From positions 46,082 to 110,081 of the forward strand of contig CAZUDO010000058.1 in assembly GCA_964618895.1 (NCBI GenBank): DNA of 64,000 nucleotides. The letters are read 5' to 3'. The notes under the pieces were generated by a model that worked only from the letters and a program-made list of their open reading frames with translations, was not told the DNA's origin and ran no database searches. The translations under genes and the position numbers were made by a program. Source of the stretch: an uncultured Candidatus Binatia bacterium. GTDB lineage: Bacteria; Desulfobacterota; Binatia; DP-6. Positions 38,605 through 64,000 of the stretch are shown here, in pieces (the first letter of the stretch is position 1; each line of letters opens with the position of its first letter).

Positions 38605-38658
38605 CGCCGCATCGTAGCGGCTCGCACGGCGACGGGCGACCGCACGCGCCGGTGCGGA

Positions 38659-39009
38659 TCACACCACCAGCAGGGAGACGATGCGCGACAGCCAGGGGAT
38701 GAACGACAGGAACGTGTACACCGTGGCCAGCACCACCATCGACTCGTACACCAGCGGGCGCGCCCCGAGCCGGCGCAGGATGATCAGGAAGGCGCACGCC
38801 TTGGCCTTGAACAGGCAGAGGGTCGCCCCGACGCCCAGGTACGGGATGGAGTAGAGGAGGATCGGGTTGCCCTCGTTCCAGTGCCAGCGCAGCCCCTCGT
38901 AAGTGGCCACGCCGTCGAAGATCTGCAGGCACAGGTTCAAGAGGAAGAGCTGATGGAGCCGGCTGTGTGCTGGGGTGTCCGGCATGGTGGCGCCCGCATC
39001 CGGCTGCAA
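38659..39009 (-). CDS. Small integral membrane protein, DUF5658-like
   Basis: 116 aa with 3-4 TM helices and a conserved EGNP motif (HWNEGNPILL). It lies between the MoxR and VWA genes. Confidence 0.4.
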   Translation of the reverse strand: MQPDAGATMPDTPAHSRLHQLFLLNLCLQIFDGVATYEGLRWHWNEGNPILLYSIPYLGVGATLCLFKAKACAFLIILRRLGARPLVYESMVVLATVYTFLSFIPWLSRIVSLLVV

Positions 39010-39077
39010 GCCAGGTGCCAGGGCATCCCCGCGCCGTTACACGGCGGGGGGGCACGGCGACCGTCAGTGCTGCACCG

Positions 39078-39956: not shown

Positions 39957-39964
39957 CGCGACCC

Positions 39965-43351: not shown

Positions 43352-43518
43352 GCGCCTCTGTCGCACACCCCGGCGTGCGCTGGCAAGGGGAAAATCGGAC
43401 CCGAAACCCGTGGGGCGCCAGCCACTTACCGGTTCCGTGCCCGCGAAGAGTGCGCGCCGGAGGGCCACGCCCCTCCGGGTGCATCGGGGCGGGGCGCGGA
43501 GCGGACGGGTTCCGTGCG

Positions 43519-43548
43519 TTGACAGAAGTAGCTACGTGGGGCTACTTT
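43519..43548 (+). promoter_or_regulatory. Candidate promoter/operator of the phd-vapC operon
   Basis: TTGACA at 43519-43524, followed by the inverted repeat AAGTAGC-N8-GCTACTT (43526-43547) that overlaps the -10 region. This is typical of antitoxin autoregulation. Confidence 0.4.
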
Positions 43549-45672: not shown

Positions 45673-45722
45673 CGACCACCGACGGTAGCGACGGCGCCGG
45701 AGCAACATGCTATGGGCGGGTC

Positions 45723-48167: not shown

Positions 48168-48185
48168 CGAGGAGGAGGGATCCGC

Positions 48186-49226
48186 ATGCGTGCGCTGGGA
48201 TGGGGACTGCGGCTCGCGCTCGCGGGGCTGTTCGCCTTCGCGGCCAGCGGGAAGCTGCTCGGGCATGCCGAGTCGGTGGCGGCCTTCACGACCCTCGGCG
48301 CGGGCAGCGGGTTCCGTCTCTTCATCGGCGGGTGCGAGCTGCTCGGCGCCATCGGCCTCGTCCTGCCCCCGTTCGCCGCCCTGGCCGCGCTCGCTCTTTC
48401 CCTGGTCATGATCGGCGCCGTCGCGGCCCATCTGCTGGTCCTCGGGCCGAGCGCCGCGCCGGCGGCCGTGGTCCTCGCCGCGCTGCTCGCGGTGGCGTGG
48501 CTCGAGCGCGGCGGTCTCCGGGCGCTGCACGTGCTCGTCACCGGCAAGGGGGCCATGGACGGCTGGCTCGCCCACAGCTACGACCGTGGCATCCAGCAGG
48601 TCTTCCGGGGCCTGTTCACCGAGCTGTCGCGCGACGTCCTGGCGGCGATGCAGGGTGCCCGTCGCATCCTCGACGCCGGCTGCGGCCCGGGGCAGTTCAC
48701 GGTCATGGCCGCCGAGGCGCTGCCCCGGACCGAGGTGTGGGGCATCGACCTCGCCCCGGCGATGCTGGCCCTCGCCCGCCAGCATGCCGCCGCCTCCCCG
48801 GCCGTGGCGCGCGTCCACTTCGAGCGTGCCGACGTGACCCGTTTGCCCTTCCCCGACGCCCACTTCGACGCCGTCATGACCACCGGCTCGATCAAGCAGT
48901 GGCCGGACCCGGTGGCGGGCCTGTGCGAGCTGCACCGGGTGCTGGTGCCGGGCGGGCGCGCGTTCGTGGTCGAGCTGAACCGCGCCGCACCACCGGCCGC
49001 CGTGGCCGCGTTCGTGGCCCGCGCCGGCACGTGGGTGGCACGCGTCTTCCTGCCACGCGCGGTGGCGCAGGGGATGGCGCCCGCGGACGGGGTGGCGATC
49101 GTACGCGCCTCGCCGTTCGGTACGGTCGTCGGCGAGCGCCTGCTGCTCGACGGCCTGCTCTGGCTGGCGGAGCTGCAGCGTGCCCCGGCGCACGACCCGC
49201 CGCGCGTTCCGGCCCCGCCCGGCTGA
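48186..49226 (+). CDS. DoxX-family membrane domain fused to a class I SAM-dependent methyltransferase
   Basis: The N-terminal ~115 aa have three or four TM helices of DoxX type. The C-terminus carries methyltransferase motif I (ILDAGCGPGQF) and a post-I acidic residue. GGAGGAGGG Shine-Dalgarno upstream. Confidence 0.65.
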   Translation: MRALGWGLRLALAGLFAFAASGKLLGHAESVAAFTTLGAGSGFRLFIGGCELLGAIGLVLPPFAALAALALSLVMIGAVAAHLLVLGPSAAPAAVVLAALLAVAWLERGGLRALHVLVTGKGAMDGWLAHSYDRGIQQVFRGLFTELSRDVLAAMQGARRILDAGCGPGQFTVMAAEALPRTEVWGIDLAPAMLALARQHAAASPAVARVHFERADVTRLPFPDAHFDAVMTTGSIKQWPDPVAGLCELHRVLVPGGRAFVVELNRAAPPAAVAAFVARAGTWVARVFLPRAVAQGMAPADGVAIVRASPFGTVVGERLLLDGLLWLAELQRAPAHDPPRVPAPPG

Positions 49227-49229
49227 GCC

Positions 49230-50114
49230 GTGGCGCAGCCCACCGCCCGCTCGCGCTACCGGCCGGATACCGTCCCGGACTACAGCCACCGCTTCCACGC
49301 CGGCAACGTCGGCGACGTGTGGAAACACTGTGCGTTGCTCGAGGTGCTACGCGGGGCAGCCGCGCACGGCGGGCCGGTGCACTATGTCGAGACGCACGCC
49401 GGCGAAGGCGGGTACGCCCTCGGTCCGACGGGCGAGTGGAGCGAGGGCATCGGGCGCCTGTGGGCCGCCCCCGATCGCGACGGAGCGCCGGACGGGCTCG
49501 CGCGCTACCTGAGCCTCTGCCGGCGCCTCGGCCGCGGTGGAGAACGACCCACGCGCTACCCCGGGTCGCCCGCGTTCGCCCGCGCCGCTCTCGGCGCCGA
49601 CGCGCCGCTCCTACTCTGGGAACGCGACCAGCACGCCTGGGAGCAGCTGACCGCGCATGCCGCAGGCGACCCGCATACCCTCGTCATCCGGGGCGACGGG
49701 CTGCAGGCCCTGGACGACACGCTCGCCACGCTCGCGCGCGAGCCCGCGCCCGTCGTCGTTTTCGTCGACCCGCCCTACACCCACAAGTCGGACTGGGTGA
49801 CCGTCCCCGACGCCCTCGTCCGCGCCGCCGCGGCGGCGCCGCACGCCTGCCTCATGCTGTGGTATCCCGTGAAGAGCCTGACCCGGCCGAACGCCATGAT
49901 CGCGCGCCTGGAGGCCGCCGCCGTCCCCGGGACCGTCGCTGAGCTGGTGACCACGCCGCTCGAGCACCAGCGCCAACGGCTGAACGGCAGCGGTGTGCTG
50001 CTGGTGCGCCCGCCCGCGTCCGTGCTCGCCGCCCTCGCCGCGACCGCGCCGGTCATCGGCGCACACTGCGCTACGCACGCCGGCACCTGGTCGTTCCGCA
50101 TGCGGAGCTGGTGA
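49230..50114 (+). CDS. rlmJ: 23S rRNA (adenine2030-N6)-methyltransferase RlmJ
   Basis: RlmJ signatures HAGNVGDVWKH and the DPPY catalytic motif (VFVDPPYTHK). GTG start. Confidence 0.8.
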   Translation: MAQPTARSRYRPDTVPDYSHRFHAGNVGDVWKHCALLEVLRGAAAHGGPVHYVETHAGEGGYALGPTGEWSEGIGRLWAAPDRDGAPDGLARYLSLCRRLGRGGERPTRYPGSPAFARAALGADAPLLLWERDQHAWEQLTAHAAGDPHTLVIRGDGLQALDDTLATLAREPAPVVVFVDPPYTHKSDWVTVPDALVRAAAAAPHACLMLWYPVKSLTRPNAMIARLEAAAVPGTVAELVTTPLEHQRQRLNGSGVLLVRPPASVLAALAATAPVIGAHCATHAGTWSFRMRSW

Positions 50115-50219
50115 CGGCTACGCGGGAGATCGAAGAAGATCCGCCAGTGACCCACGCGGCGGCGGTAGCTCGCGCGGAATCTTCATCGGACGAGTCGAGG
50201 CGACGCTGGATCCGAACGC

Positions 50220-50879
50220 CTACAGCCGGAGCGCCTCGAGCGTCGCCTCGATCTCATGGGTTGGCAGACGCTGCAGGTGTCGACTGATCGCGTCGACGAC
50301 CGTGGCGGCGCCTCCGCTCGCCGAGAGCCGCCGCGTCGACGGGTCCCACGTGAGGCGGGCAAAGCGATGGTCGAGACCATCGCCGCGGACGCGCAGGCCG
50401 TGGCACACGACCGTCCCACCGGTCCAGGCATCCGCCCGGCACCGTGTGGCTCGGAGGGTGAGCCTGGCGTCACCTGTCCGGCCCCGCACGCGCAGTCGGA
50501 GGCCGTCGACACGCAGGGAAGACACGGTCCGGGCCGGCGCGGATCCTTTTGTTGCCCCGCCCGCGCCGCCCGGCCGCGCGGCGTGGCCGGCGCCGTCACG
50601 CACCTCGATGCGGGCGTTGCGCGCCGTGAGCGCACGCGCAAACCCGAGCCGGAACGGGCCGACCCGCGTCCGCTCGAGTCGCAGCTCGTCGGCCGCCACG
50701 TCGATCACGCGACGGCCGGCCACGACGCGGGTCGAATGGAAGCCACGAATGACGACGCCATCGTGGGCCGGCGGTCCGGGCACGGGAGCGGGCGCCCGCC
50801 CCAGACCGAGCCCGGCCACCATCGCCGCACCGGCCACCGCGAGCGCGCCGAGCAGGTATCTCGTGTCGCGTGCGGTCAT
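50220..50879 (-). CDS. Hypothetical periplasmic/membrane-anchored protein, translationally coupled to the giant repeat protein
   Basis: The ATG at 50879 shares its A with the giant gene's TGA stop (TGATG). N-terminal TM (YLLGALAVAGAAMVAGLGL) then a beta-rich Arg-rich region. An alternative ATG at 50897 gives the ORF-track start. Confidence 0.45.
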   Translation of the reverse strand: MTARDTRYLLGALAVAGAAMVAGLGLGRAPAPVPGPPAHDGVVIRGFHSTRVVAGRRVIDVAADELRLERTRVGPFRLGFARALTARNARIEVRDGAGHAARPGGAGGATKGSAPARTVSSLRVDGLRLRVRGRTGDARLTLRATRCRADAWTGGTVVCHGLRVRGDGLDHRFARLTWDPSTRRLSASGGAATVVDAISRHLQRLPTHEIEATLEALRL

Positions 50880-53800
50880 CAGGGGAGGAAGTTGCATCGT
50901 CCGGTGAGCAGGCGGCCGAGCTCGCAGCGCGTCATGTCGGGCGCGAGGCCGCCGAAGGTCGCGTCGGGCAGCTGCTGGAGATCCGGCCGCCCGAGCGCGT
51001 CGAAGCCGGGCACGAGCGGACGGAGCGTCGTCATCGTACCCATGAAGAACGGCGCCAGGGTGAGCCGTTGGTCACGCAGGAGGCCGAACGTGCGGGCGGC
51101 AAACGTGGCCTGTCCGGTGAGCGCGGTGCGGAGGTTCTGGAGTCCCAGCCGGACACGTCCGACCTGAGCCCGATCGGCGGCGGGGATGACGAGGGCGTCG
51201 TCGGCCTGGTCGTCGGTCTCGGCCACCACCACGTCGATCGCCGCGACCAACGCGGCGAGCGCCTCGTCGAGCCGGATGCGGGCGAGGGTGAGCTCGGTCG
51301 TGCCACCCGGCCGCAGCGTGAGGAGGAGTGGATTGGCGAGGAAGACCTGCTGCGCGGTACGGCGGTTGGCGATCGCGTCGTCGGCGTCGACTCCGAAATC
51401 GTAGGCGGCCACTGCATGAGCGGCGGCGGCCGCGGCCTCGAGCGTCGCCCGGAGCACGAGGACGTCGCCGCTGTCGATCTCGACCGGGCCGAGGCCCGAG
51501 CGGCGGACACACGGCGGCAGGTTGTCGGGGTCGAACGGAATCGTCGCACCCGCCGGGATACGGGCGAGATGGGCGAGCGCTGCGTCGGCCGCCGGCACGG
51601 AGGTGCGGATCGCGTCGAGGACCTCGGTCGTGTCCGGCGCGTCCGGCGGAATGGCGCCGTCGTGCACCGCGGACAGGCCACACAGCGTGGCCGCCGACCC
51701 GACGCCCTCGCCGCCCGAGGCGCGCAGGAGATCCAGGGCCAGCGGCGCGTCGACGCGTACGGCCAACCCGGTGAGGGCGGCCAGCAGGCTCGCCTCGGGA
51801 TTGCCGGGGTCGGCCGCGGCCGCCGCGGCGCAGAACGGATCCGCCTGCACCGCATTGCCGGCCCGCAGGCGGGCGAGGCAACGCAGCACGTTGGCTTCGG
51901 CCCCGTCACTGCGTCCGTCACCGTCGCTGTCGGCGTCGGTCGGATCGCTCCGTAGATCGAGGACTTCCTCCCCGTCGCCCACACCGTCACCGTCGCTGTC
52001 GGCGCTTCCGGGCCTCGTGCCCGTGTCGAAGCCGTCGGCGAACGTGCCGGTCGCGGTCTCGACCGGATCGACGAGGCGATCGCCGTCCGTATCGGGGAAG
52101 GTGACGAAGCGGAGCAGTGGCTCGCCCTGGCGGCGGAGCGGGACGTGTGCCGAGACGGGTACGCTGGTGCCGTCGTCGACGGCGACGATGAGGTCCTGGT
52201 CGGCCCCGTCGACGAGCGACGAGATGTCGAGCGGACCGGGCAGGATCGAGCCCGCAAACGGCACCGGCCCGATGGTTGGCGAACTTCTGACGTAGGTCGC
52301 GGCAGTGTCGCTGCCTCCCCCCTGGGCCCAGCTCGTGAAGCGCAACGTGAAGAGGGCGCCGGTCACCGTCGAGCGCACGCACACGGTGCGGCCAGCGAGC
52401 TGCGAGTTGCTGTCGCCGCAGACGCGGAAGAAGGTCGGCCGGAAGCCGTTCTCGAGCGCGTCGCAGGCGCCACACGCGAATTCGAAATCCTGGCCGCTGG
52501 ATGTGAACGAGCTTTCGAGGAGCCGCCGGCCGTTCGGCCGTTCGACGAAGCGGCCAGCCTCGAGCACGTCGCGGAAGCTGTTGCGGCGCGTGAGGGCGAC
52601 GGACACCTGGCTCTCGATGCGGACCGTACCTGCGAGCGGGTCGGCGTTCGGGTCGGCGAGGGCCACGTCCACGTCGATGCTGTCGCCGTCGGCGACCAGG
52701 GCACGGATCGCGAGCGTCGGCTGACAGGCATCGCCGCCGCCGTCGAAATCGGCGTCGGCCTGGTCCGGGTTCCGCACCGTGCGACAGTTGTCGCGTCCGT
52801 CGGCGACGCCGTCGCCGTCGCCGTCGGGGTCGAGCGGGTCGCTGCCGCGGGCCACCTCGTCCGCGTCGGTGAGTCCGTCGGCATCGGTGTCCGGATTCTG
52901 CGGGTCGGTACCGTTGGCGACCTCGGTACCGTCGCCGAGGCCGTCTTCGTCGGTGTCCGCAAAGCGCGGGTCGGTGCCACGGGCGACCTCGGCGCCGTCG
53001 TTGAGGCCGTCCCCGTCGGTGTCGGGGTTGCGCGGGTCGGTGCCGGTCGCCTGCTCGACCGGATTGGCGAGGCCGTCGCCGTCGGTGTCGGCGGGGCCGT
53101 CGGCGGGGTTGCGCGGGTCGAGGCCGTTGGCGACCTCGTACCCGTCGGAGAGGCCGTCGGCGTCGGTGTCCGCGCTCGTCGGATTGGTGCCACGGGTGGC
53201 CTCGTCGGCGTCGGAGAGCCCGTCGGCGTCGGCGTCGGGGAAGGCGAAGAAGTTGACGATCTGCGCCTGTTCCTCGGGGGTGATGCCCTCGAGGGCGCGG
53301 CCGCCGAGGCGGGAGAGGCGGGTGGCGGTGGCGATCGCGTCGGCGCGGGCCGTGCGTCGCGCCCCGAAGTGCATGAGGATGGTGCGCCCGCCGGGGGGCA
53401 CGGTCACCTGGAACGAGACGCCGATGGAACCCCGGTTGAAGTCGTTGGCAAACACACCCCCGGGCTCCTGGCGGGCGTTGGGTCCCGAGAAGACGTAGGC
53501 GAGCGCCGGACTCCCGGTGACGTCACCGTCGTCCGTGACCACGAAGTCGTCGGCGAGGTCACCGGTCAGGTCGCCACTGGACGTCGAGACCACGACCCGT
53601 GGCATCGGGAAGGGGAATTCGGACGAGTTGATGGACACGAACGCGGCTCGCGGCTCACGAGTCGGGTTGTCGAGGATCTCGAGGTAGCGGACGAACGCGT
53701 CGTCTCGCGGCACGAAGATCTTGCGACTGAAGCGCAGGGCGCCTTGGATGTTGGGCCCGACGAAGGCGCCGTCGGGTGACCCCGGGCCAGACGACGTCGG

Positions 53801-56800
53801 GACGATGGCCGAGAACGAGACACCACCCTGCCCGTCGCTGCTCACGCTCACGTTGAAGCCGCTGAAGAAGGTCTCCTGGATCGTCCCGGCAAAATAGACC
53901 GGCCAGCGGAACGACAGTCCGTCGCGCAGTACGATGGGCACGGGCGCGTTCCGGCGGTCGTCGGTGGCCACCAGCGGATTGGTCCCGTCGGCCAGCACCT
54001 CCTCGCCGTCGCTCCGGCCGCCCCGGTCGGTATCACGGTTCCGCGGATCGGTGCCGAGCAGCTGCACCTCCTCGCCGTCCAACAGGGCATCGAGGTCCGT
54101 GTCGGCCTGCCGCGGGTTGGTCCCGCGCTGCAGCTCGTCGCGGGTAACGAGGCCGTCGTCGTCGGGGTCGGCGCCGGCGTCGGAGGCATCCAGCGGATCG
54201 AGGTTGATCCGCACCTCGACGCCGTCCGGAATACCGTCGCCGTCGGTGTCCGCCCGCAGCGGGTCGGTCCCGCGGCCGATCTCGTCCCCGTCACCGAGGC
54301 CGTCGTCGTCGCTGTCCGGGTCGCGCGGGTCGGTGCCGCGCGCCGCCTCGTCGGCGTCGCGGAGTCCGTCGGCGTCGGTGTCGGCGCTGCGCGGGTTGGT
54401 GCCCCCGCTGACCTCCGCGCCGTCCCGGATGCCATCGCCGTCGCTGTCGGCATTGGTCGGATTCGTCCCCGCCGTCTGCTCGACGAGGTTGTCGAGGCCG
54501 TCGCCGTCGGGGTCGGCGCCACCGTCGGCCGCCGACCGCGGATCGAATCCCCAGGCCACCTCGAAGCCGTCGCGGAGGCCGTCGCCGTCGCTGTCGGGGT
54601 CGTCGGACCGCGTCCCGCGCGCGGCTTCTTCGGCGTCAGAGAGGCCGTCGCCATCGGCGTCGAGAGCCACGAAGTTGAGGATGGACGCACGCTCCTCGGG
54701 TGACAGGAACGAGAGCGCGGCTCCACCGAGGCCCGCGAGTCGCGTGGCGTTGGCGACGGCTCCAGCGTCGGTGCCGCTCACCGACGCGAATTGCAGTAGG
54801 CGGATCCTGCCGCCTGGAGGAATCCGGACCGTGAACGTCGTCGTGAGGTTCGCGAAACCGCGGCCTCGGCGGGGATCGAACTCGGACGCGAACCGGACGG
54901 AGGAGGGCTCGAGCCGTGCGAAGGGTCCCGAGAAGACGTGCGCGACCGGCGGATTGAGCAGGGCGCCTCCGGGGGATGACGCCACGTGGGTGACGACGAA
55001 ATCGTCGCCGGCATCCGCGAGCGCGTCGCCGTTCGACGTGGTCACGATCTCGATGGGGAGAGCGCCCGACGGCCCGAATACCCGGAAGAAGCTCCTGGCC
55101 TCCAGGGTGGCAACCGTCTCGGTGTCGGCCAGATTGTCGATGACCTCCAGAACGCGCACGAAGCGGTCATTCCCGGGCACGAACACCTTGCGTACCAAGC
55201 GCAGGTCGCCGCCGAGCGCGGGACCGATGACGAGTTCGCGCGGGAAGGCGCCGCCCGCCGACCCTCCCGGGACGTCGAAATCGGCGACCGCCGTCCTGCC
55301 GACGAAAAACCCGAACGAGAACAGGCCCGAGTCGGTATCCAGGTTCAGTAGGGAATGAAGCCGGGAAGTCCCGACCCCGAGCGAGCCGTTCGCGTTCACG
55401 GTCCAGACGGCCCCACTGCCGTCACGAAGACCCGAGAGCGGCAGGGCATAGCCGGTCGCCTCGCTGAACGGGTTCCGGGGATCGGTGCTATCGACGAGCA
55501 CCTCCTGCCCGTCGGTGCGGCCCGCCCCATCGGTGTCGGGGATCAGCGGATCGGTGCCGGCGAGATGCACTTCTTCGCCATCCCGGAGCGTGTCACCGTC
55601 GCTGTCCGGCTCGAACACGTCCGTGCCACGCGCGACCTCCTCCGCGTTGCCGAGCCCGTCCAGGTCGGCGTCCGCCGCCGCGTCCGTCGGATCGAGCGGG
55701 TTGAGCCCGCTCGCGTCCTCGGCGCCGTCGCGCACGCCGTCGCCGTCGGTGTCGGGACGGAACGGGTCGGTGCCCTCGTCGAACTCGTCGCCGTCGTCGA
55801 GGCCATCGCCGTCGCTGTCGGCCACCAGCGGGTCGGTGCCGGTGAGGAAGCGCTCGACCCCGTCGCACAGGTCGTCGCCGTCGGTGTCGAAGAGGGAGGG
55901 GTCGGTCCCGAGGGGCGGCTCCTCGCAGTCGCCGAGGCCGTCCGCGTCGAAGTCGCGCTCGAGCCCGCGGCCGCACGGGTCGGTCGCGTCGAGCGGGTCG
56001 GTGAGCGTGAGGACCTCGAAGCCGTCCCGGAGACCATCGTCATCGGTGTCGGGGTCGTTCGGGTCGGTGCCGATGTCGACCTCGTCGGCGTCGGTGATAC
56101 CGTCGCCGTCGGTATCGAGGTCGCCCGACGGCCGGTCGTCGGAGGGATCCGTCGGGTCGAAGCCGAGGTCGCGCTCCACCCCGTCATCGAGGCCGCCGCC
56201 GTCGGTGTCGCGGTCGAGCGGGTCGGTGACGAAGCCGTCGGCGCCCGGGATCACCTCCTCGCCGTCGAGGAGACGGTCGCCGTCGGTGTCAGCGCGCGTG
56301 GGGTTCGTGCCACGCGTCACCTCGTTGCCGTCGAGGAGCGTGTCACCGTCCGTGTCGGGCACGCAGGGGTCGGTGCCCTGGAGGAACTCCTGCCCGTTCG
56401 CTAGCCCGTCGGCGTCGGGATCGCGGTCGGCGTCCCGGAGCCGGGAGTTGAGGCCGCAGGAGCGGTGCAGGTCCTCGAAGTCGTTCGGCACGCCGTCGCC
56501 GTCGCGGTCGGCGCCGAGATTCACCACCAAGCGCACCGACGTGAACACGCCGTCGTTCGAGATGCTGACGATGACCGCTCCGCTGTCCGTCCTTGCGGTG
56601 ACGAGGCCGTCGGGCCCGACAGTCGCAATGGCGGCGTTGCTGCTCACGTACGTGGTCCCGGTGCTTCCGGCGGTCACATCGGGCATCGAGCCGTCGGCAA
56701 GCGTCGCGACGACGGTGATCTGCGCGCTCTGCCCTTCGGCGGTGAGCGTGTCCGGCACGACGGTGGTAGCGAGCGACTCGACCGCCGGCGGCGCGTCGCC

Positions 56801-59800
56801 CAGCTCGATGGTGCCCACGTCGATGGTCTCGCCGAGCTCGGCGGCGAAGAAGCCCGACACGCCGGCGAGCAGCCCGGCGTCGAACGAGACCGCCCGCGCC
56901 CGGAACAGCCCGGGCGCCGCCGGCACGTTCGGAATGAGGAACGTGCCGTCTGAATTCACGCGCACGGACCGGCTGCGCGCCGTTACCGTGGCGCCGGCGA
57001 CGCCGCCACTCGACCCGCCGGGGCCGACGACGACGCCCCGCACGCGCATCGACGGTGGGGGCGGCGGACTTGCGAAGAACCACCCGGACTTGGCGATGCC
57101 GCTTCCCGGGTCGGATACGATGGTGGCACCGTCAGGCTGCACCGTAGCCGTACCGGCGCTCACGTACTGCCCGAGGTCGTGGTCGAAGCTGAACAGCTCG
57201 ATGATCTGCCCCGGCGGCAGGCCGTCGGAGTTCGGGACGATGAGTCGGGCCGGCGGATCGAAGTGAATGCCGGGCGGCTGGAATGTTCCCACCCAGGGGG
57301 GTGCCGCACCGCCCGACGGCGGCATCGGCGCCTGGTCGCTGCTCACCTGCGTGACGCCCATGGTGACGACCTGCGACGTCGCCGCCAGCAGCCCGGCTCC
57401 CGGCACCGACACCGAGTTGGCGAGAACCTCCAGGCCGAAGCCTTCGACGCCGGCCATCCGCAGGACGACGTTCTCAGCGCCGCCCACCTCCTGGAAGTTG
57501 GGTTCGTCGAGCTGTGGCAGGAAGATTGGCATGCCGAGGGTGTTGTCGGTACCGGGCAGTATCTCGACCGCCAGCTCGATCGGCGGCCAGACGCCAGGCC
57601 GCGTCGTCGTACTGCCGCCGACGAACAGATGCGCGGCCCCGGGCGGGACGTCCTGCAGGACGAACGTGCCGTCATCGCCCGTGAAGGTGGCGATGGGTGG
57701 GTCCGTGCCGGCGAGGGCCACCGTGGCATGCGGGATCGGCCGTTCTTCGGTGTCGAGGACGACGCCGAGGAGGCGGGCCGGCCCGGTCGGCGATGGCACC
57801 ACCGCCGAGGCAAGGAACACGGGGTCTTGCGTCGCGATGCCGTCGAAGGTCGCGGAGACGACATTGTTGTTCACACCGGCGTCGGGGCCGAGGACGAGCG
57901 TGAGCGCGACGCGTCCATCGTCGTTGGTCGCCACCGTCGTGACGAGGGCCCCGCCCAGGTTGCCGCCCCCGCCATCGACACGGAAGGTGACAGGCAGCCC
58001 CGCGCACACGTTGCCGCCGGCGTCCACGGCGAACACCTCGAACGGGCGCGCCAGCGCCGAGCCGGCCAGGCCCACCTGGTTCTCGCCGGAGATCGCGAGC
58101 AGCTTCTCGCACGGCCCGCCGGCGGCGGAGGCGGTGAACGTCACCGGGTCGTCGAAGCCGGCGCTCCGCACCTCCACCCGGTTGTTGCCGACGCCAGCAC
58201 GCGTCCCGAGCGCCCATTCGACGCTCGCCCGGCCGTCGGCACCGGTGAGCACGCCGAGGCTCTGCGCCTCTTCCGTCGCGCCCACCCCGCGGAGGACGCC
58301 ATCGTTCCGCACCACCGCGAACTCGAGCAGCCGGCCGGACAAGGGCGCGCCGGCGGCATCCACCGCGCGTACGGCCAGCGGCGCGGCCAGCGGCTCGCGC
58401 ACGACGCCCGACTGGCCGTCGCCCGCGACGATCTCGAGCCGGAGACCGGGAGACGGGGCGCGGCGGGTGATGGTCACACTGAACGGCGCACTCACGTTGC
58501 CGGCGGTGTCGGTCGCGACCGCGGTAAGGACGTTGGTCCCGAGCGCGAGCGCGACCGCATCCACCAGGAAGCTCCGGTTACGAACGACGCCGTTCGCGCT
58601 GCCGAGCCGGCCGCTGACCACCACCCGGCAGTCCTCGGCGTTGACCGTGCCGACGACGACATCGTTCACCGCGCCGGTGACGGTGACGGTCGAAGCGGTG
58701 ACGACGCCGCCCTCCGCCGGCGTCTCGATGATGACGCTCGGTGGCGCCGTGTCCCGGATCACCGTCACGCTCGCGCTCGCCGTGAGCCCGTCCGCCGTCC
58801 GCGCGAGGGCCAGCAGGGTATTGAGTCCCTCGCGCAGCGGCACCGGGGAGGCGACGAACCGTCCGCCCGCCAGCACCGCCGTAACGCCACTCACGTCCAC
58901 GCTCGTGACGGTGGCCGACACGACCCCCGTGACATCGACAACGTCTCCCCTGGTCAGGAAGCCACCGGCTGGCGCGTCGATCGCGATCGACGGAGCCTGG
59001 CAGTCGTCCAGCTCGTCGATATCGCCGTCGCAATCGTTGTCGATGCGGTCACAGACCTCTGACGACGGGTCACCGGGGACGCATTCCTGCGCCGTACCGT
59101 TTGCGCAGGCTGGGACCGTCCGGGTACAGGCGCCCACGCCGCACGTCTGCGTCCCGAGCCCTTCGTCCGTGGCCCCGTCGCAGTCGTTGTCCTGCCCGTC
59201 GCAGCCCTCCGTCGTCGGGGTGCCCGGAACGCACGCCGGCGGCGTGCCGTTCACACACGCCGCGACGCTTCGCGTGCAGGCGCCGGTACCGCACGTCTGC
59301 GTCCCGAGCTCCTCGTCCGTAGCCCCGTCGCAGTCGTTGTCCTGCCCGTCGCACACCTCCGTCGTCGCGGTGCCCGGGCCGCACGCCGGCGGCGTACCGT
59401 TCACACAGGCCGCCACCGTCCGCGTACAGGCGCCGGTACCGCACGTCTGCGTCCCGAGCTCCTCGTCCGCGGCCCCGTCGCAGTCGTTGTCCTGCCCGTC
59501 GCAGACTTCGGGCGAGGGGACGCAGTCACTGGTGCACCGGTCGCTGCAGCCGGCGGTGCCTGGCGGCTCGCACGTTTCGCCGGTGTCGACGACCCCATCC
59601 CCGCACCGGGGGCGCGTGCAGTTCGTCCGGCATCGATCGGGCGCCGCGTCGCTGTTGGCGTCCCCGTCGTCGCATGCCTCCGGCGGGGTGACAATGCCGT
59701 TCCCGCAGCCCGTGACCGTGCAGTTGGCATCGCAGCCATCGCCGCTCAGGCTATTGCCATCGTCGCACTCCTCGCCGGGGGAGACGACGTGGTTCCCGCA

Positions 59801-60043
59801 CGCGATCTCACAGGCGCTGCCTCCAGCGCGGCAGCACGCCTTGCAGTCGACGGAAAAAAGATGTGCACAGAAACTCTTGCCCGCATGCGCAGCCGACGCA
59901 CAGGCACGCTTCGCCTGCTTGCACCGGCTCTCGCACTCGTCGACCCTCGGCGTTGCCGTGGCACCGCCGGCGCAGGCGATCACGGCGAGCCCCAGCGCCA
60001 CTGCCAAGCGCCAGCGAAGGCTTCCTTCACGCGCGATACTCAT
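50879..60043 (-). CDS. Giant secreted repeat protein (3054 aa) with Myxococcus Cys-rich repeats, MopE-like CDGxDNDCDG motifs, Ig-like domains, thrombospondin type 3 calcium-binding repeats and a duplicated ~230-aa module
   Basis: True start MSIAREGSLRWRLAVALGLAVIACAGG (signal peptide) at 60043, with GGAGG 9 nt upstream. The ATG overlaps the upstream gene's TGA (ATGA). Dozens of DxDxDGxxDxxE repeats are present. The start was trimmed from the 3165-aa ORF. Confidence 0.8.
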   Translation of the reverse strand: MSIAREGSLRWRLAVALGLAVIACAGGATATPRVDECESRCKQAKRACASAAHAGKSFCAHLFSVDCKACCRAGGSACEIACGNHVVSPGEECDDGNSLSGDGCDANCTVTGCGNGIVTPPEACDDGDANSDAAPDRCRTNCTRPRCGDGVVDTGETCEPPGTAGCSDRCTSDCVPSPEVCDGQDNDCDGAADEELGTQTCGTGACTRTVAACVNGTPPACGPGTATTEVCDGQDNDCDGATDEELGTQTCGTGACTRSVAACVNGTPPACVPGTPTTEGCDGQDNDCDGATDEGLGTQTCGVGACTRTVPACANGTAQECVPGDPSSEVCDRIDNDCDGDIDELDDCQAPSIAIDAPAGGFLTRGDVVDVTGVVSATVTSVDVSGVTAVLAGGRFVASPVPLREGLNTLLALARTADGLTASASVTVIRDTAPPSVIIETPAEGGVVTASTVTVTGAVNDVVVGTVNAEDCRVVVSGRLGSANGVVRNRSFLVDAVALALGTNVLTAVATDTAGNVSAPFSVTITRRAPSPGLRLEIVAGDGQSGVVREPLAAPLAVRAVDAAGAPLSGRLLEFAVVRNDGVLRGVGATEEAQSLGVLTGADGRASVEWALGTRAGVGNNRVEVRSAGFDDPVTFTASAAGGPCEKLLAISGENQVGLAGSALARPFEVFAVDAGGNVCAGLPVTFRVDGGGGNLGGALVTTVATNDDGRVALTLVLGPDAGVNNNVVSATFDGIATQDPVFLASAVVPSPTGPARLLGVVLDTEERPIPHATVALAGTDPPIATFTGDDGTFVLQDVPPGAAHLFVGGSTTTRPGVWPPIELAVEILPGTDNTLGMPIFLPQLDEPNFQEVGGAENVVLRMAGVEGFGLEVLANSVSVPGAGLLAATSQVVTMGVTQVSSDQAPMPPSGGAAPPWVGTFQPPGIHFDPPARLIVPNSDGLPPGQIIELFSFDHDLGQYVSAGTATVQPDGATIVSDPGSGIAKSGWFFASPPPPPSMRVRGVVVGPGGSSGGVAGATVTARSRSVRVNSDGTFLIPNVPAAPGLFRARAVSFDAGLLAGVSGFFAAELGETIDVGTIELGDAPPAVESLATTVVPDTLTAEGQSAQITVVATLADGSMPDVTAGSTGTTYVSSNAAIATVGPDGLVTARTDSGAVIVSISNDGVFTSVRLVVNLGADRDGDGVPNDFEDLHRSCGLNSRLRDADRDPDADGLANGQEFLQGTDPCVPDTDGDTLLDGNEVTRGTNPTRADTDGDRLLDGEEVIPGADGFVTDPLDRDTDGGGLDDGVERDLGFDPTDPSDDRPSGDLDTDGDGITDADEVDIGTDPNDPDTDDDGLRDGFEVLTLTDPLDATDPCGRGLERDFDADGLGDCEEPPLGTDPSLFDTDGDDLCDGVERFLTGTDPLVADSDGDGLDDGDEFDEGTDPFRPDTDGDGVRDGAEDASGLNPLDPTDAAADADLDGLGNAEEVARGTDVFEPDSDGDTLRDGEEVHLAGTDPLIPDTDGAGRTDGQEVLVDSTDPRNPFSEATGYALPLSGLRDGSGAVWTVNANGSLGVGTSRLHSLLNLDTDSGLFSFGFFVGRTAVADFDVPGGSAGGAFPRELVIGPALGGDLRLVRKVFVPGNDRFVRVLEVIDNLADTETVATLEARSFFRVFGPSGALPIEIVTTSNGDALADAGDDFVVTHVASSPGGALLNPPVAHVFSGPFARLEPSSVRFASEFDPRRGRGFANLTTTFTVRIPPGGRIRLLQFASVSGTDAGAVANATRLAGLGGAALSFLSPEERASILNFVALDADGDGLSDAEEAARGTRSDDPDSDGDGLRDGFEVAWGFDPRSAADGGADPDGDGLDNLVEQTAGTNPTNADSDGDGIRDGAEVSGGTNPRSADTDADGLRDADEAARGTDPRDPDSDDDGLGDGDEIGRGTDPLRADTDGDGIPDGVEVRINLDPLDASDAGADPDDDGLVTRDELQRGTNPRQADTDLDALLDGEEVQLLGTDPRNRDTDRGGRSDGEEVLADGTNPLVATDDRRNAPVPIVLRDGLSFRWPVYFAGTIQETFFSGFNVSVSSDGQGGVSFSAIVPTSSGPGSPDGAFVGPNIQGALRFSRKIFVPRDDAFVRYLEILDNPTREPRAAFVSINSSEFPFPMPRVVVSTSSGDLTGDLADDFVVTDDGDVTGSPALAYVFSGPNARQEPGGVFANDFNRGSIGVSFQVTVPPGGRTILMHFGARRTARADAIATATRLSRLGGRALEGITPEEQAQIVNFFAFPDADADGLSDADEATRGTNPTSADTDADGLSDGYEVANGLDPRNPADGPADTDGDGLANPVEQATGTDPRNPDTDGDGLNDGAEVARGTDPRFADTDEDGLGDGTEVANGTDPQNPDTDADGLTDADEVARGSDPLDPDGDGDGVADGRDNCRTVRNPDQADADFDGGGDACQPTLAIRALVADGDSIDVDVALADPNADPLAGTVRIESQVSVALTRRNSFRDVLEAGRFVERPNGRRLLESSFTSSGQDFEFACGACDALENGFRPTFFRVCGDSNSQLAGRTVCVRSTVTGALFTLRFTSWAQGGGSDTAATYVRSSPTIGPVPFAGSILPGPLDISSLVDGADQDLIVAVDDGTSVPVSAHVPLRRQGEPLLRFVTFPDTDGDRLVDPVETATGTFADGFDTGTRPGSADSDGDGVGDGEEVLDLRSDPTDADSDGDGRSDGAEANVLRCLARLRAGNAVQADPFCAAAAAADPGNPEASLLAALTGLAVRVDAPLALDLLRASGGEGVGSAATLCGLSAVHDGAIPPDAPDTTEVLDAIRTSVPAADAALAHLARIPAGATIPFDPDNLPPCVRRSGLGPVEIDSGDVLVLRATLEAAAAAAHAVAAYDFGVDADDAIANRRTAQQVFLANPLLLTLRPGGTTELTLARIRLDEALAALVAAIDVVVAETDDQADDALVIPAADRAQVGRVRLGLQNLRTALTGQATFAARTFGLLRDQRLTLAPFFMGTMTTLRPLVPGFDALGRPDLQQLPDATFGGLAPDMTRCELGRLLTGRCNFLP
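59128..59510. repeat. Tandem 150-bp near-identical repeats encoding the 50-aa MopE-like units EVCDGQDNDCDGATDEELGTQTCGTGACTR…
   Basis: Units begin at 59128, 59278 and 59428 and are about 90% identical at the DNA level. Confidence 0.7.
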
Positions 60044-63000
60044 TCGGTATCCCCCTCCGGTTCGTGAGCCTTCTTGCCGACATTCGTCGCAGCCGCCGCC
60101 GACACGATACGACCCGGCGGGACGCCGATGTTCCGGAGCCGACGCACGGCGGCGGTGACGCAGCGGACATACTCGCCGTGCGTCCCGTAGCCGCGGCGCG
60201 CCGCCGCCGGGCAGGTCGGGCACAGGGCCTCGATCGCCACGACGGCGCGGGCCGGCACGTCGAGGTCGTTGGCCAGCGCGGATACGCAGGCGATCGTGCA
60301 CTGTCCCATCGAGCACGTACCGGGCACGCCGTCGCGCCCACAGGCCGTGCCGTCCGGCACGGGCGCGCTCTGGCATGCGTTCCCCCTGCAGCGGTCGAGC
60401 GTGCAGTCGTTTCCGTCATCGCAGTCCGCGTCGCGGCCACAGCAGTCCGACACCGGCTCGTGTCCGCAGCCCCGCTCGGCATCGCACCGATCGGTCGTAC
60501 ACACCTCGTCGTCGTCGCACGCCGCATCGACCGGCCGGTGTACGACAGCGTCGGCCACCTCGTCGCAGGCGTCCGTGGTGCACGGGACCCCGTCGTCGAC
60601 GACCGGCGGCGTCCCGGGGTGGCACGCCCCGGCGGTCACGTCGCAGGTCTCGGCGCCGGTGCAGAACAACCCGTCGTCGCAGTCCGCGTCGCGGCCACAG
60701 CAGTCCGGCACCGCCTCGTGTCCGCAGCCCCGCTTGGCATCGCACCGGTCGGTCGTGCACCCCTCCCCATCGTCGCACGCCGCATCGACCGGCCGGTGTA
60801 CGACGGCGTCGGCCGCCTCGTCGCAGGCATCCGCGGTGCACGGGACGCCGTCGTCGACGGGCGGGGGCGTGCCCCGGCGACACGTTCCCGATGCCACCTC
60901 GCACGTCTCGATGCCGGTGCAGAACCGGCCGTCATCGCAGTCGGCGTCACGCATGCAGCGGTCGCAGGCATCGCCGATCCCGTCGCCGTCGCTGTCCCGC
61001 TGTGACGGATCGGGGACCTCGGGGCAGTCGTCGACCGGATCCGGGATGCTGTCGGCGTCGCTGTCCGCGATCGCCACCACGACCGGCGCGAGCTCGCACG
61101 CCACGCCCGGCGGACAGTCGCCGTCGACGCCGCACACGCCCTGCGGCCGCTGGCAGACGCCTTCCTGGCAACGCGCACCGCTCGGGCACTCCGCGTCCGC
61201 GAGGCAGCTGGCGCCGATCTCGGTGCAGCGGCCGGCGCTGACGAACACCTGCGTCCCGGACTCCTCGTCCGGCGGCAGCGGGTCGAAAAGCGGATCGGTC
61301 TGGCTGCCGGCCGCGTCGCTCACCGTGCCGATGGTGCGGACCGTGCGCGACCGGACACTGAACACCTGCACGACCAAGTCGTCCTGGTCGTCGTCGTTGT
61401 TCAGGTCGGCGCCCTGCTCCGCCTCGCGCGTGAGGAAGCGGACGGTGTCGCGCTGGACCCGGTACGGCGTGCGCGGATCACACGCCTCCAGGCGGCAGGG
61501 TGTCAGGGCCTGACCGCTGTTCAGGAGGACGCCCTCCGCCACGTCGTAGACCTGGAGAACGTCGTCGGCGGTGTCTCCGTCGCCGTTGAGCTGGGTGCCT
61601 TCCTCTGCTTCGGGCGTCCGGAACGCCACCAGCGTCGGGCCGAGCACGAAGTCCCGTGCCGCAACCGAGGCCGCGTCCACCACCGTCGCGCTCGCCCCCG
61701 CGGCATCGAGGATGAACACCTGCAGGACGCGGTCGCCGAGGTCGCCGTCCGCGTTCAGCGGCGCGTTCTGGGCGGCCTCGTCTCCAATCGCCACCGCAAC
61801 CGAAACGACGACGCCGCCCGCGATCTCCATGTCTCTCACCGCCGCCACCTCCGCGGCGACACCCGTCTCCACCCACCGGCTACCGGGGCCCCGGCATGTG
61901 TCGGCGCCAGCCGGAATGCGCGGATGGACTTGGAGGACGCGGTCGTCGGCATCGCCATCGCCGTTCAGGTCGACTCCGTCCTCGTCCGTCTCCGGCACGA
62001 GCGCCGCCACCCACGTCGGCGACAGGGAGACCGCGCTCGCGGCACACCCGAGGTTCGCGACCCCGGCACCCTGCCAGAGATGGACCACCCGATCGGCGCT
62101 GTCGCCGTCGCCGTTCAGATCGGGACCCGAGGGGCATGCGGTTGCCACGCCCCCAGCCTCGGGCCGGAGGAAGGCGGCCGCACCGTCCGCGATCGCCACC
62201 GCGGTTGCCGGGCACAAGGAGACGGGCTGCGCCGGCGTGGTCGCCGTGTCGATCACCAGCAACACGTCGTCGTCCGCGTCGCCGTCGCCGGAGAGATCCC
62301 CGGACGCACCCAACGGGCCGCGCACGAACACGTCGGCGAGGCCGTTGGTGTCGCCCACCACCAGGTTCGCCGCCGGGCTCGCGAACGCGACCTGCCGGCC
62401 GCCGCGGGAGAGCGCGGGGTTGCCGCTCAGGTTCCCGGCGGCGTTGCCGGCGCCGTCGACGCTCATCCGGGCCGTGAGGCCGGTGTCCAGATCGTGCACG
62501 AAGACGTCGATGAAGCCATTCGTGTCTCCGGAGATCAGGTTGGTGGCGAAGCTGGCGAAGCCCACGACCCGGCCATCGGGGTCGATCGTCGCCGAGAACG
62601 CGTCCTCGTTCGCCTGGGTGCCGGTCGAGTCGACGCTCACGCGCCGCGTGATCCCGGTCGCCCGGTCGTGCACGAACACGTCGTTCGCGCCGTTGGTGTC
62701 GCCGGCCACGAGGTTGCTCGCGACGCTCTCGAAGACGACGACCCGGCCGGCGCCGGAGAGACGCGGCGAGAAGCTGTCCCCGTTGCCAGCGCTCACGCGC
62801 GTCATCCGTCCGGTGGCCCGGTCGTACACGAACACGTCGTCGGCGCCGTTGCCGTCACCGGCGACCAGATTGGTCGCGCTGCTACCGAAGGCAACCAAGC
62901 GTCCGTCGGCAGAGACGGAGGGGGTTTCGCTCGCGCCGTCGGCAGGGCCCTCGGTCGCAGCGATGGACACCCGCGTCGTCGCAACGCTGGCCGGCTCGTC

Positions 63001-63981
63001 GAAGACCCCGTTGCCGTCGGTGTCGCGGTCGTGGACGAAGATGCCCTGGAGATCGCCGCCGTCGGCCGCCACCAGGTCGGTCGCCAGGCTCGCAAACGCC
63101 ACCACCCGGCCGTCGGCCGAGATTGCGGGTGCGATCGAATGGCCGTTGGCCTCGGCGCCGCCCGGACCGACGCTCACGCGCACGGTCGCCTGCCCTCCGG
63201 GCCCGGGCTCGTCGAAGGTTCCGTCGCCGTCGGCGTCGCGGTCGTGGACGAAGACGTCGGAACGAACGTTCGCGTCGCCCGCGACGAGATCCGCCGACGC
63301 GCTCGCGAACGCGATCCACCGGCCGTCGGCCGACAGCGCAGGCGCCGCGCCGCCGCCGCTCGCCTCCGCGCCGTCCGACGCCACGCTGACGCGAACGGTC
63401 GCGACCGCACCCGGCTCGTCGAAGACGCCGTCGCCGTCAGGGTCGCGGTCCCGGATGAACACGTCGCCGACCCCGTTCGTGTCGCCGGCGACGAGGTTGC
63501 TCGCCGCGCTGACGAAGGCCACCGAGCGGCCATCGGCCGAGAGGGCGAGGTCCCCCGTGTTCTGCCCGCTCGAGCCGTTCCCCTGCGCCCCTGCGGTCGC
63601 GACGCTCACCCGCGCGGTCCCCTGGAGAGCACGCGCCGATTCCGAGCTGCGGAGAAACACCCGGCCGCTCGAGATGGCGAGGGCGCGCCCGGCGATGACC
63701 GGCGCCGCATCCGCCACCACCGGCGGCCCGGCGAGGAGCGACGCGGCGGTCGCACCCTCGGCGCGGAAAACGCGCAACAGCGTGTCGCGCACGTCGCCGT
63801 CCCCGTTCGCATCGGCCGCGAACTGCAGCGCCTCCGGCTCGAGGAACGCGAGCACCCTGTCCTCGGTGGCCTGCGCAGGGAATCCGAACGGTGGGTCGGC
63901 GATGCGGGCGACGGCGCGCCCCTCGGCGCCGCCCGCACCGATCCGCAGGAGCGTGCCCGTCGTCCGGTCGCGCAGCGTCAT
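60040..63981 (-). CDS. PD40/TolB-like beta-propeller repeat protein with C-terminal cysteine-rich repeats; the N-terminus may extend beyond the window
   Basis: At least nine tandem copies of SADGRxVAFxSxAxNLVxGDTNGxxDVFVHDR (PD40/WD40-like). Acidic DGDGD motifs follow, then two near-identical 87-aa Cys-rich repeats. No signal peptide is seen at the first in-window Met, so the true start is probably upstream of 64000. Confidence 0.65.
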   Translation of the reverse strand: MTLRDRTTGTLLRIGAGGAEGRAVARIADPPFGFPAQATEDRVLAFLEPEALQFAADANGDGDVRDTLLRVFRAEGATAASLLAGPPVVADAAPVIAGRALAISSGRVFLRSSESARALQGTARVSVATAGAQGNGSSGQNTGDLALSADGRSVAFVSAASNLVAGDTNGVGDVFIRDRDPDGDGVFDEPGAVATVRVSVASDGAEASGGGAAPALSADGRWIAFASASADLVAGDANVRSDVFVHDRDADGDGTFDEPGPGGQATVRVSVGPGGAEANGHSIAPAISADGRVVAFASLATDLVAADGGDLQGIFVHDRDTDGNGVFDEPASVATTRVSIAATEGPADGASETPSVSADGRLVAFGSSATNLVAGDGNGADDVFVYDRATGRMTRVSAGNGDSFSPRLSGAGRVVVFESVASNLVAGDTNGANDVFVHDRATGITRRVSVDSTGTQANEDAFSATIDPDGRVVGFASFATNLISGDTNGFIDVFVHDLDTGLTARMSVDGAGNAAGNLSGNPALSRGGRQVAFASPAANLVVGDTNGLADVFVRGPLGASGDLSGDGDADDDVLLVIDTATTPAQPVSLCPATAVAIADGAAAFLRPEAGGVATACPSGPDLNGDGDSADRVVHLWQGAGVANLGCAASAVSLSPTWVAALVPETDEDGVDLNGDGDADDRVLQVHPRIPAGADTCRGPGSRWVETGVAAEVAAVRDMEIAGGVVVSVAVAIGDEAAQNAPLNADGDLGDRVLQVFILDAAGASATVVDAASVAARDFVLGPTLVAFRTPEAEEGTQLNGDGDTADDVLQVYDVAEGVLLNSGQALTPCRLEACDPRTPYRVQRDTVRFLTREAEQGADLNNDDDQDDLVVQVFSVRSRTVRTIGTVSDAAGSQTDPLFDPLPPDEESGTQVFVSAGRCTEIGASCLADAECPSGARCQEGVCQRPQGVCGVDGDCPPGVACELAPVVVAIADSDADSIPDPVDDCPEVPDPSQRDSDGDGIGDACDRCMRDADCDDGRFCTGIETCEVASGTCRRGTPPPVDDGVPCTADACDEAADAVVHRPVDAACDDGEGCTTDRCDAKRGCGHEAVPDCCGRDADCDDGLFCTGAETCDVTAGACHPGTPPVVDDGVPCTTDACDEVADAVVHRPVDAACDDDEVCTTDRCDAERGCGHEPVSDCCGRDADCDDGNDCTLDRCRGNACQSAPVPDGTACGRDGVPGTCSMGQCTIACVSALANDLDVPARAVVAIEALCPTCPAAARRGYGTHGEYVRCVTAAVRRLRNIGVPPGRIVSAAAATNVGKKAHEPEGDTE
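60413..60960. repeat. Tandem ~261-bp repeats encoding 87-aa Cys-rich units inside the PD40 protein gene
   Basis: The unit starting at 60413 repeats at 60674 with over 90% identity. A partial third copy lies near 60930. Confidence 0.65.
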
Positions 63982-64000
63982 GACCAGATCCGTCTGATCC

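Follow-up and report, generated by a model that had tools for sequence, protein, structure and literature searches.

A giant TSP3-repeat protein with putative lectin-like supersandwich modules and an overlapping small partner gene in an uncultured Candidatus Binatia bacterium

Giant proteins built from thrombospondin type 3 (TSP3) repeats are common in Myxococcota-like and other environmental bacteria and are thought to mediate cell-matrix, cell-cell and predator-prey contact; a Ca2+-binding, rigid role is established for the type 3 repeats of thrombospondin and COMP. To our knowledge, almost no giant TSP3-repeat protein is understood beyond the integrin-like gliding adhesin CglD (NF033765). 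CglD of Myxococcus xanthus lies at the cell surface and acts in adhesion to the substratum in a Ca2+-dependent manner, it carries a von Willebrand factor type A (VWA) domain with a metal ion-dependent adhesion site (MIDAS) in its C-terminal half, and a Ca2+-bound, rigid spacer role has been argued for its TSP3-type repeats (bioRxiv 10.1101/2023.10.19.562135). In Omnitrophota, dockerin-type giants of >30,000 aa combine dockerin/EF-hand and discoidin repeats with bacterial TSP3, and elongation by repeat duplication has been proposed for these proteins (bioRxiv 10.1101/2023.11.21.568195). Here a related locus is described from an uncultured Candidatus Binatia bacterium (GCA_964618895.1, contig CAZUDO010000058.1, positions 46,082 to 110,081). 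This stretch of 64,000 nt (G+C 70.9%) is referred to as the window and its numbering is used throughout. Three consecutive open reading frames (ORFs) on the minus strand, named A, B and C, fill positions 50220-63981 (Table 1). Our preferred reading, to which we give a probability of roughly 0.45, is that B acts in a Ca2+-dependent way as a giant protein of the surface or matrix, probably binds glycans, and is paired through its C-terminal domain with the co-translated product of C.

B is of a known kind, that of the giant TSP3/COMP-like surface proteins of bacteria which bind Ca2+, and scores below the cutoffs for CglD and for MtsC and MtsD. The Pfam family TSP3_bac (PF18884) was matched with an E value of 8.9e-76 and 249.7 bits against a cutoff of 25; 29 units of the D-x-D-x-D type were counted by regular expression, with a tandem periodicity of 66 nt, and all Pfam and NCBIfam matches in B are to extracellular-type domains. 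An earlier note on this DNA, made from the letters alone, had described a secreted central protein of 3054 aa, and this was borne out by an independently called protein (P0005) that is identical to B and by a signal peptide. The three long TSP3 blocks of that description were recovered and a fourth, short block (aa 2651-2716) was added, while the four CDGQDNDCDG units of MopE type are all present, three exactly and one as a variant. Taken alone, the TIGR02232 repeats and the G+C content would point to a Myxococcota-like source.

CglD and B are alike in a secreted or lipoprotein-type N-terminus, DxDxDG TSP3/COMP-like Ca2+ repeats and Cys-rich repeats, and CglD was the best NCBIfam match of B (139.4 bits in 8 stretches, confined to the TSP3 blocks and far below the cutoff of 400). 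However, B has no VWA domain or MIDAS, the former a defining part of CglD (no Pfam match to the VWA family at E<=0.01), is about three times longer, and carries features of its own in the supersandwich modules, the distinct C-terminal domain and the gene coupled to it downstream. Neither glt nor agl genes were found in the window. The 'cell-cell cohesion' proteins MtsC and MtsD (NF047638 and NF047639) are likewise TSP3-rich and secreted, but B matched both below threshold, with 92.7 bits against MtsD (cutoff 800), derived from the TSP3 repeats alone, and 23.2 bits against MtsC (cutoff 350), and neither a MYXO-CTERM tag nor another hydrophobic terminal helix was found at the C-terminus of B. 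With the dockerin-type giants B shares great length, repetitiveness, Ca2+ binding and a predicted role in the extracellular attachment of an uncultured bacterium, and growth by duplication of repeats is proposed for both; it differs in having no dockerin matches in Pfam, and no small partner gene is described for the giants. What is new here is the fold and the family size of the module, the frame-plus-insertion architecture of B and the conserved coupled partner C, and current understanding is not overturned.

B and C are a genuine conserved, overlapping gene pair. On a 1.8-kb contig (L002) a close homologue of C (P0002, 52% identity) is preceded by an ORF that ends like the C-terminus of B, and the junction is again TGATG. 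On another contig of the same sample as the window (L003), a 2056-aa protein (P0029) shares with B the N-terminal region (E 2.5e-57), the middle domain (8e-70) and the C-terminal domain (2.4e-89), and is followed with a 16-nt overlap by a 234-aa homologue of C (42% identity, E 2e-27). Two soil contigs, L084 and L085, were retrieved by scanning Joint Genome Institute (JGI) metagenomes with the C-terminal-domain alignment, and in L085 this domain is followed with a 10-nt overlap by a further C homologue (31% identity, E 1e-15). In all, three or four loci carry the pair (L084 and L085 may come from one organism), with stop and start codons overlapping in every case. Four C proteins share a hydrophobic N-terminus and the motif RVGPFRLGFA. 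The ratio of nonsynonymous to synonymous substitution (dN/dS) of C was 0.39 against its closest relative, with signs of purifying selection, and ~0.9 in distant comparisons. An LptC-like bitopic periplasmic protein was considered for C and rejected, the hhalign probability against an approximate E. coli LptC sequence being 0.4%.

The arrangement of three consecutive minus-strand genes with ATGA and TGATG overlaps, as first noted, was confirmed for the ORFs and for both junctions. No Shine-Dalgarno or purine-rich ribosome-binding motif was found 5' of the C start at the B/C junction, and the motif is missing in L002 as well, whereas GGAGG lies ~10 nt 5' of the B start, within A. Because only the B/C junction lacks a Shine-Dalgarno motif, it alone looks like true termination-reinitiation coupling. 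The further proposal that the overlaps imply expression at a fixed ratio was not upheld; overlaps by themselves do not imply it, no junction is more frequent in compact GC-rich operons than a 4-nt ATGA overlap, and B has a strong Shine-Dalgarno motif of its own. A longer 5' extension of the B ORF (60044-60376) has a G+C content at third codon positions (GC3) of only 0.62, against 0.89 for B, and the start at 60043 is therefore considered correct. For C a second possible start exists (ATG at 50897), and both candidate starts overlap B. By exact sequence look-up the 219-aa form of C was indexed, and full-length B and the 225-aa form of C were not on record.

The soil contig L084 (2-1444, plus strand) encodes a short B-like protein, of which ~480 residues are visible, with a Cys-rich N-terminus, one DUF4215-like unit and a Thr-rich mucin-like linker leading into the C-terminal domain. 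Its N-terminus is homologous to P0029 (BLASTP 3e-11) and to the alignment of B and P0029 (hhalign 3.8e-5). Because L084 joins both ends almost directly, the ~2,500 aa of modules in B look like an expansion, about six-fold, within a conserved frame. A hidden Markov model of the N-terminal frame found no further members among the 83 loci L001-L083, and a collection-wide search with it was swamped by the generic DUF4215 repeat.

Between the ends of B lie two copies of a module that the earlier note had left unassigned. The copies are true paralogues, which align over 287 aa with 37% identity (E 7e-43), and neither Pfam nor NCBIfam has a model that covers them; the module is not an oddity of B, though, and belongs to a very large family whose fold can be recognised. 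When representative clusters at 50% identity were searched exhaustively with HMMER and a three-sequence module profile, 2,764 clusters were obtained at E<=1e-3, 1,575 at <=1e-10 and 484 at <=1e-30. A word-index search with the module returned one relative only, P0003, a standalone protein of 383 aa with a signal peptide and a PEP-CTERM-like tail; such searches under-report homologues of the low-complexity, high-GC B (1 against 2,764). The C-terminal domain of B gave no match at all in this way, and B-derived queries did not return B, which the representative library contains as P0005. Up to eight copies per giant protein were found, ~380 aa apart with TSP3 blocks between them, and giant relatives add VWA (P0007, P0012) and Big_7. 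Among the best 150 module matches, about one third have a single copy in a protein of 300-800 aa. Standalone members combine a signal peptide with an IPTL-CTERM or PEP-CTERM-like tail, or have TSP_3, DUF11 or CBM_4_9 as partners; no Pfam or NCBIfam match was obtained over the module in these proteins, and the module has motifs of its own (RKVFVPxDDxFxRYLExxxN ... IVNF). The idea of a cell-surface, adhesion or matrix system is supported for B, in view of its domain content and of the VWA, Big_7 and surface-sorting tags of its relatives, and is not supported for the three genes as a unit.

An AlphaFold2 model of copy 2, computed from a 31-sequence alignment (predicted local distance difference test 86.5, predicted template modelling score 0.87), consists of a large beta-sandwich followed by C-terminal helices. 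The model has confident three-dimensional similarity to solved supersandwich domains, with scores of ~12 against aldose-1-epimerases and 13.5 against the YidC P1 domain, all at ~10% identity, and Foldseek returned the same set. On this model the module is predicted to be a galactose-mutarotase-like beta-supersandwich, here without a catalytic domain, a fold that we take to be the InterPro 'glycoside hydrolase-type carbohydrate-binding' fold. The N-terminal beta-supersandwich of GH15 glucodextranase/dextran dextrinase and of the GH94/GH65 phosphorylases has the same fold at ~10% identity, and B has two Glucodextran_B-type Ig domains as well; however, B has no (alpha/alpha)6 catalytic domain, no glycoside-hydrolase catalytic domain of any kind was found in it with Pfam, and its module is repeated among TSP3 blocks. 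Fold and context together suggest that the modules are glycan-binding and lectin-like.

A broader claim can be put forward as a possibility only, and one that is on balance somewhat unlikely in its joint form. This is that the module represents a large new family of lectin-like domains in giant surface proteins (>2,700 clusters at 50% identity), absent from Pfam and NCBIfam, and that the B-C pair is a previously undescribed two-gene cassette. One gene would encode a secreted frame protein that inserted adhesin modules can stretch from about 0.5 kb-equivalent to >3,000 aa, and the other an obligatorily translation-coupled, extremely basic, exported partner. Such a cassette would either dock giant surface proteins at the envelope or assemble them, or else be a toxin-immunity family whose stalk is adhesive.

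Two side observations were made on module-bearing loci. In two studies, standalone module proteins (P0074 and P0081) are encoded divergently beside a gene for a ~710-aa Sulfatase+TPR protein (L087/L088, 5798-9164, JGI; L091, 1373-4803, Logan), an adjacency which could tie the module family to sulfated or otherwise modified glycans. In L086 (2499-25162), P0007, a 3053-aa protein with five modules, is clustered with five more TSP3_bac genes, two upstream and three directly downstream, and these are followed by a 2091-aa ORF with no Pfam match that runs off the locus; such gene families can form arrays.

In the reading that we prefer, B would be exported by Sec, possibly lipidated, and displayed outside the cell. 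Its frame would be formed by the Cys-rich N-terminal region and the acidic C-terminal domain of ~320 aa, with the ~2,500 aa of modules inserted between them; the four TSP3 blocks would bind Ca2+ and act as rigid spacers, and the Ig-like/prealbumin-like and supersandwich modules would give binding surfaces, probably for polysaccharide. B could in this way bind the cell's own exopolysaccharide or the envelope of other cells as a long adhesin or matrix protein. Given the shared stop and start codons, and with no Shine-Dalgarno motif ahead of C either in the window or in L002, C would be made by ribosomes terminating on B, and its synthesis would be tied to the completion of B. The two partners carry complementary charges (pI 4.55 for the C-terminal domain of B, 11.8 for C), and basic C would bind the acidic domain at a ratio of ~1:1 or less and act as an envelope-side dock, assembly factor or chaperone. 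A would be co-transcribed with B here, B having its own ribosome-binding context. We infer the ligand, the Ca2+ dependence, the surface location, the B-C interaction and the role of C, the last two from gene arrangement and charge only.

Several points weigh against this account. No secretion or sorting machinery, including an outer-membrane translocation system, was found among the neighbouring genes in the window, and surface exposure is assumed. The VIAC of B fits the lipobox pattern [LVI][ASTVI][GAS]C but is not kept in the paralogue P0029, which has an ordinary signal peptide, and lipidation of B is uncertain. The same supersandwich is also found in glycosidases, as a structural domain without a binding role, and in YidC, as the P1 domain. 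Neither C (no Pfam match even at E<=10, four homologues included) nor the C-terminal domain of B (aa 2735-3054, no significant match) is matched by Pfam, NCBIfam or PDB sequences. The sample is small, with three or four B-C loci of which two come from the same sample. Lastly, the conserved part is the frame and not the adhesin repeats, and the primary function may be that of the C-terminal domain, with no relation to adhesion.

The main alternative is an effector-immunity cassette, which we consider unlikely. Here the C-terminal domain of B would be an uncharacterised toxin acting in the envelope or periplasm and carried on a stalk of variable length (the Thr-rich linker in L084, the ~2,500 aa of modules in the window), the stalk would bind target cells, and C would be an exported immunity protein whose coupled translation protects the producer. 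The architecture recalls polymorphic toxin-immunity loci such as CdiA-CT/CdiI and SitA/SitI, in which a long, repeat-rich secreted protein with a C-terminal domain has a small cognate gene next to it, overlapping in the case of B and C; SitA proteins are lipoproteins, and B has a lipobox-like VIAC. C is exported, small and fast-evolving (dN/dS 0.39 to ~0.9), and it is nearly an orphan: 5.8 billion sequences searched by word index gave only C itself and one homologue. Its charge is opposite to that of the C-terminal domain, with which the small downstream gene co-varies at every one of the three or four overlapping loci, while the length between the two ends varies widely (proteins of 3054, 2056 and roughly 500 aa). 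Set against these features, SitI and CdiI are cytoplasmic whereas C carries an export signal, and B has no recognised toxin domain; Pfam and NCBIfam revealed no toxin, pre-toxin or delivery domain (RHS, haemagglutinin repeats, PAAR, LXG and similar). No genes of type V, VI or VII secretion systems lie nearby, and the region downstream holds convergent housekeeping methyltransferases instead of orphan toxin or immunity modules. Furthermore, the C-terminal domain is conserved (43-56% identity) rather than polymorphic in every relative found, though these relatives were partly found through it and are biased to that extent.

More doubtful still is the view that no specific link exists, B being one of many modular giant TSP3 proteins and C merely riding in a tightly packed operon. 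Short overlaps are commonplace in compact GC-rich genomes, C is of low complexity and Arg/Ala/Gly-rich like other high-GC ORFs, its GC3 of 0.83 is weaker than the values of A (0.90) and B, and its dN/dS nears 1 in the distant comparisons. However, three or four loci, drawn from no fewer than three samples, show the overlapping arrangement behind the same C-terminal domain at 31-54% protein identity, RVGPFRLGFA and the hydrophobic N-terminal segment are conserved, and independent gene callers call the 219-aa C.

The position of A with respect to the B-C pair was assessed from its sequence and from other loci. The earlier note had described a PD40 array of nine or more blades; seven canonical units (aa 150-556) and seven LNGDGD...VLQV Ca-loop units were found instead. 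One N-terminal LNGDGD-type unit precedes the seven PD40 units, and six more units, the Cys-rich region, which also holds one TSP3-like DSDGDGIGDACD, and an 85-aa tail with the motif HGEYVRCV follow. The PD40 match (51 bits) is above the gathering score of 20.9 and the TolB equivalog score (27.9 bits) is far from the cutoff of 343, so A is a PD40 propeller but not TolB. No signal peptide was detected in A as visible, no stop codon occurs between 63981 and the window end, and the in-frame residues 5' of the start (DQTDLV) carry the sequence on; for these reasons A is probably cut N-terminally by the window. The operon may hold more genes upstream and the trio is a lower bound.

Conservation of the trio, for which a synteny search had been suggested, was not observed. 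In L003, the only relative whose upstream DNA is visible, what lies ahead of the B homologue is a gap of 266 nt, an NYN_YacP gene in divergent orientation and a cold-shock gene, with no PD40 gene; a 66-aa fragment upstream in this locus was considered as the tail of an A-like protein and ruled out, as it is the cold-shock protein. A contig scan with the N-terminal alignment of B retrieved 80 other loci (Myxococcota, Binatia, Peregrinibacteria and others), the matches being driven by generic DUF4215/myxo_disulf motifs (GEECDDGN, DGCDANC). These loci are unrelated, none has C, the middle domain or the C-terminal domain of B, and in none of the 80 do A-like regions lie beside B-like or C-like genes. 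A therefore links to B in no other locus and appears, from these comparisons, to be a lineage-specific neighbour and not part of the conserved unit. A single cell-surface system of all three products, with A as an obligatory partner at a fixed ratio, is very improbable, for although the A/B overlap, the finding of no minus-strand terminator-like or promoter-like sites inside 50220-63981, and the DxDxDG Ca loops, Cys-rich repeats and one TSP3-like unit common to A and B speak for it, L003 and the 80 loci speak against it, the Shine-Dalgarno motif of B means that its translation need not depend on A, and A is very probably cut by the window edge.

As a separate observation, the tail motif of A (GTHGEYVRCV...IVSAAA..NVGKK; window 60043-60291, minus strand) has a counterpart in a Woesearchaeota metagenome-assembled genome (L040 2597-4075, plus strand), at the C-terminus of a Cys-rich protein that is otherwise unrelated, where it reads WKNHGKFVSCV...IISEAAKSDIGKK. 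The motif may mark a small, widespread, uncatalogued C-terminal domain.

The features of the three genes are collected in Table 1. In addition, a stretch at aa ~810-1000 of B, inside the Ig-like section, has no family match, and the C-terminus of B ends TLRPLVPGFDALGRPD...GGLAPDMTRCELGRL..GRC.

Table 1. Coordinates of genes, junctions and protein regions in the window (aa, residues of the protein named; pI, isoelectric point)
Feature	Position	Strand	Remarks
Gene A, at least 1313 aa	60040..63981	-	Frame stays open to window end at 63999
A: seven PD40 (WD40-like beta-propeller) units, aa ~138-556	62314..63570	-	Pfam PD40 E 1.1e-13; unit count by regular expression; 213-nt tandem periodicity
A: six 'LNGDGD..D.VLQV' units, DxDxDG-type Ca2+ loops, aa ~560-900	61282..62304	-	No Pfam model matches
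A: Cys-rich region, three ~86-aa repeats (Dicty_CTDC-like), aa ~925-1230	60292..61209	-	Pfam Dicty_CTDC E 1.5e-8; 258-nt tandem repeat, 86% identity
A stop/B start overlap (ATGA)	60040..60043	-	Minus-strand junction reads CCGAATGAGT
Gene B, 3054 aa, pI 4.05	50879..60043	-	Signal peptide with lipobox-like VIAC (aa 21-24)
B: N-terminal Cys-rich helical region and DUF4215/myxo_disulf units, aa 33-180	59504..59947	-	Common to P0029 and the L084 short form
B: four MopE-like CDGxDNDCDG units, aa 180-345	59009..59506	-	150-nt tandem array, 84% identity
B: Ig-like/beta-sandwich section, aa 346-1178	56510..59008	-	Glucodextran_B x2, Big_1 (weak), CarboxypepD_reg x2, Big_2 (weak)
B: TSP3 block 1, aa 1179-1500, 12 units	55544..56509	-	
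B: supersandwich module copy 1 (predicted), aa 1529-1794	54662..55459	-	
B: TSP3 block 2, aa 1795-2000, 8 units	54044..54661	-	
B: supersandwich module copy 2 (predicted), aa 2029-2269	53237..53959	-	Copy used for structure model
B: TSP3 block 3, aa 2270-2440	52724..53236	-	6 units and a eukaryote-type TSP_3-like CxxxxNPDQxDxD unit
B: middle domain, aa 2440-2650	52094..52726	-	Kept in P0029 (E 8e-70); no Pfam match
B: short TSP3 block 4, aa 2651-2716, 3 units	51896..52093	-	
B: conserved C-terminal domain, aa 2735-3054, Ala/Leu-rich, pI 4.55	50882..51841	-	Always followed by a C homologue
B stop/C start overlap (TGATG)	50877..50881	-	Junction reads CCCCTGATGACC; TGA and ATG share one base
Gene C, 219 aa, pI 11.8, 16% Arg	50220..50879	-	N-terminal hydrophobic segment aa 9-27 (signal peptide or membrane anchor); no family match

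The integrity of the locus was assessed by comparison with L001, which stems from another assembly of the same run (Logan SRR9952630) and matches window positions 48110-59201 with one mismatch. Misassembly was ruled out for this interval by the match, the two assemblies probably sharing reads. At the DNA level the repeats have diverged to 72-86% identity (72-80% for the 66-nt TSP3 units, 84% for the 150-nt MopE array and 86% for the 258-nt Cys-rich repeat of A). Because the second assembly agrees and the repeats are diverged, gross misassembly is unlikely, and the concern raised earlier that the genes might be fragments of a misassembled repeat region was not substantiated. L001 ends at window position 59201, inside the MopE array (59025-59506, 3.2 copies), so the MopE copy number is the least secure part of B.

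Downstream of C the genes are convergent and encode an RlmJ-type methyltransferase (Pfam 'RsmJ', PF04378) and other methyltransferases. The remaining neighbours are of the housekeeping type (ThyX, PIN, NAD-glutamate dehydrogenase and a VWA/AAA pair). Two further regions of the window were recorded. A gene of ~800 aa at 45700-48167 (plus strand) has a GC3 of ~0.93, a signal peptide and no Pfam match; it encodes DUF4215-like CGDG...EECD units, a Thr-rich linker resembling that of the short B form in L084, and a His-rich C-terminal domain (HHLILY, HAFN, HMHAW, HSHKRG) which suggests a metal-binding enzyme. At 37447-43531 (minus strand) lie a VWA CoxE-like gene, an AAA (MoxR-like) ATPase gene and an overlapping 1189-aa ORF (GC3 0.92, no Pfam match).

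These data correct an over-reading of the locus, in that the PD40 gene is a neighbour and not a demonstrated component. The conserved, coupled small partner C is a candidate dock, chaperone or immunity protein. The module fold and its profile define a candidate glycan-binding family, interleaved with TSP3 blocks in thousands of proteins, which could enter the domain databases, and the apparent insertion of modules into a small frame offers a concrete model for the growth of giant surface proteins.

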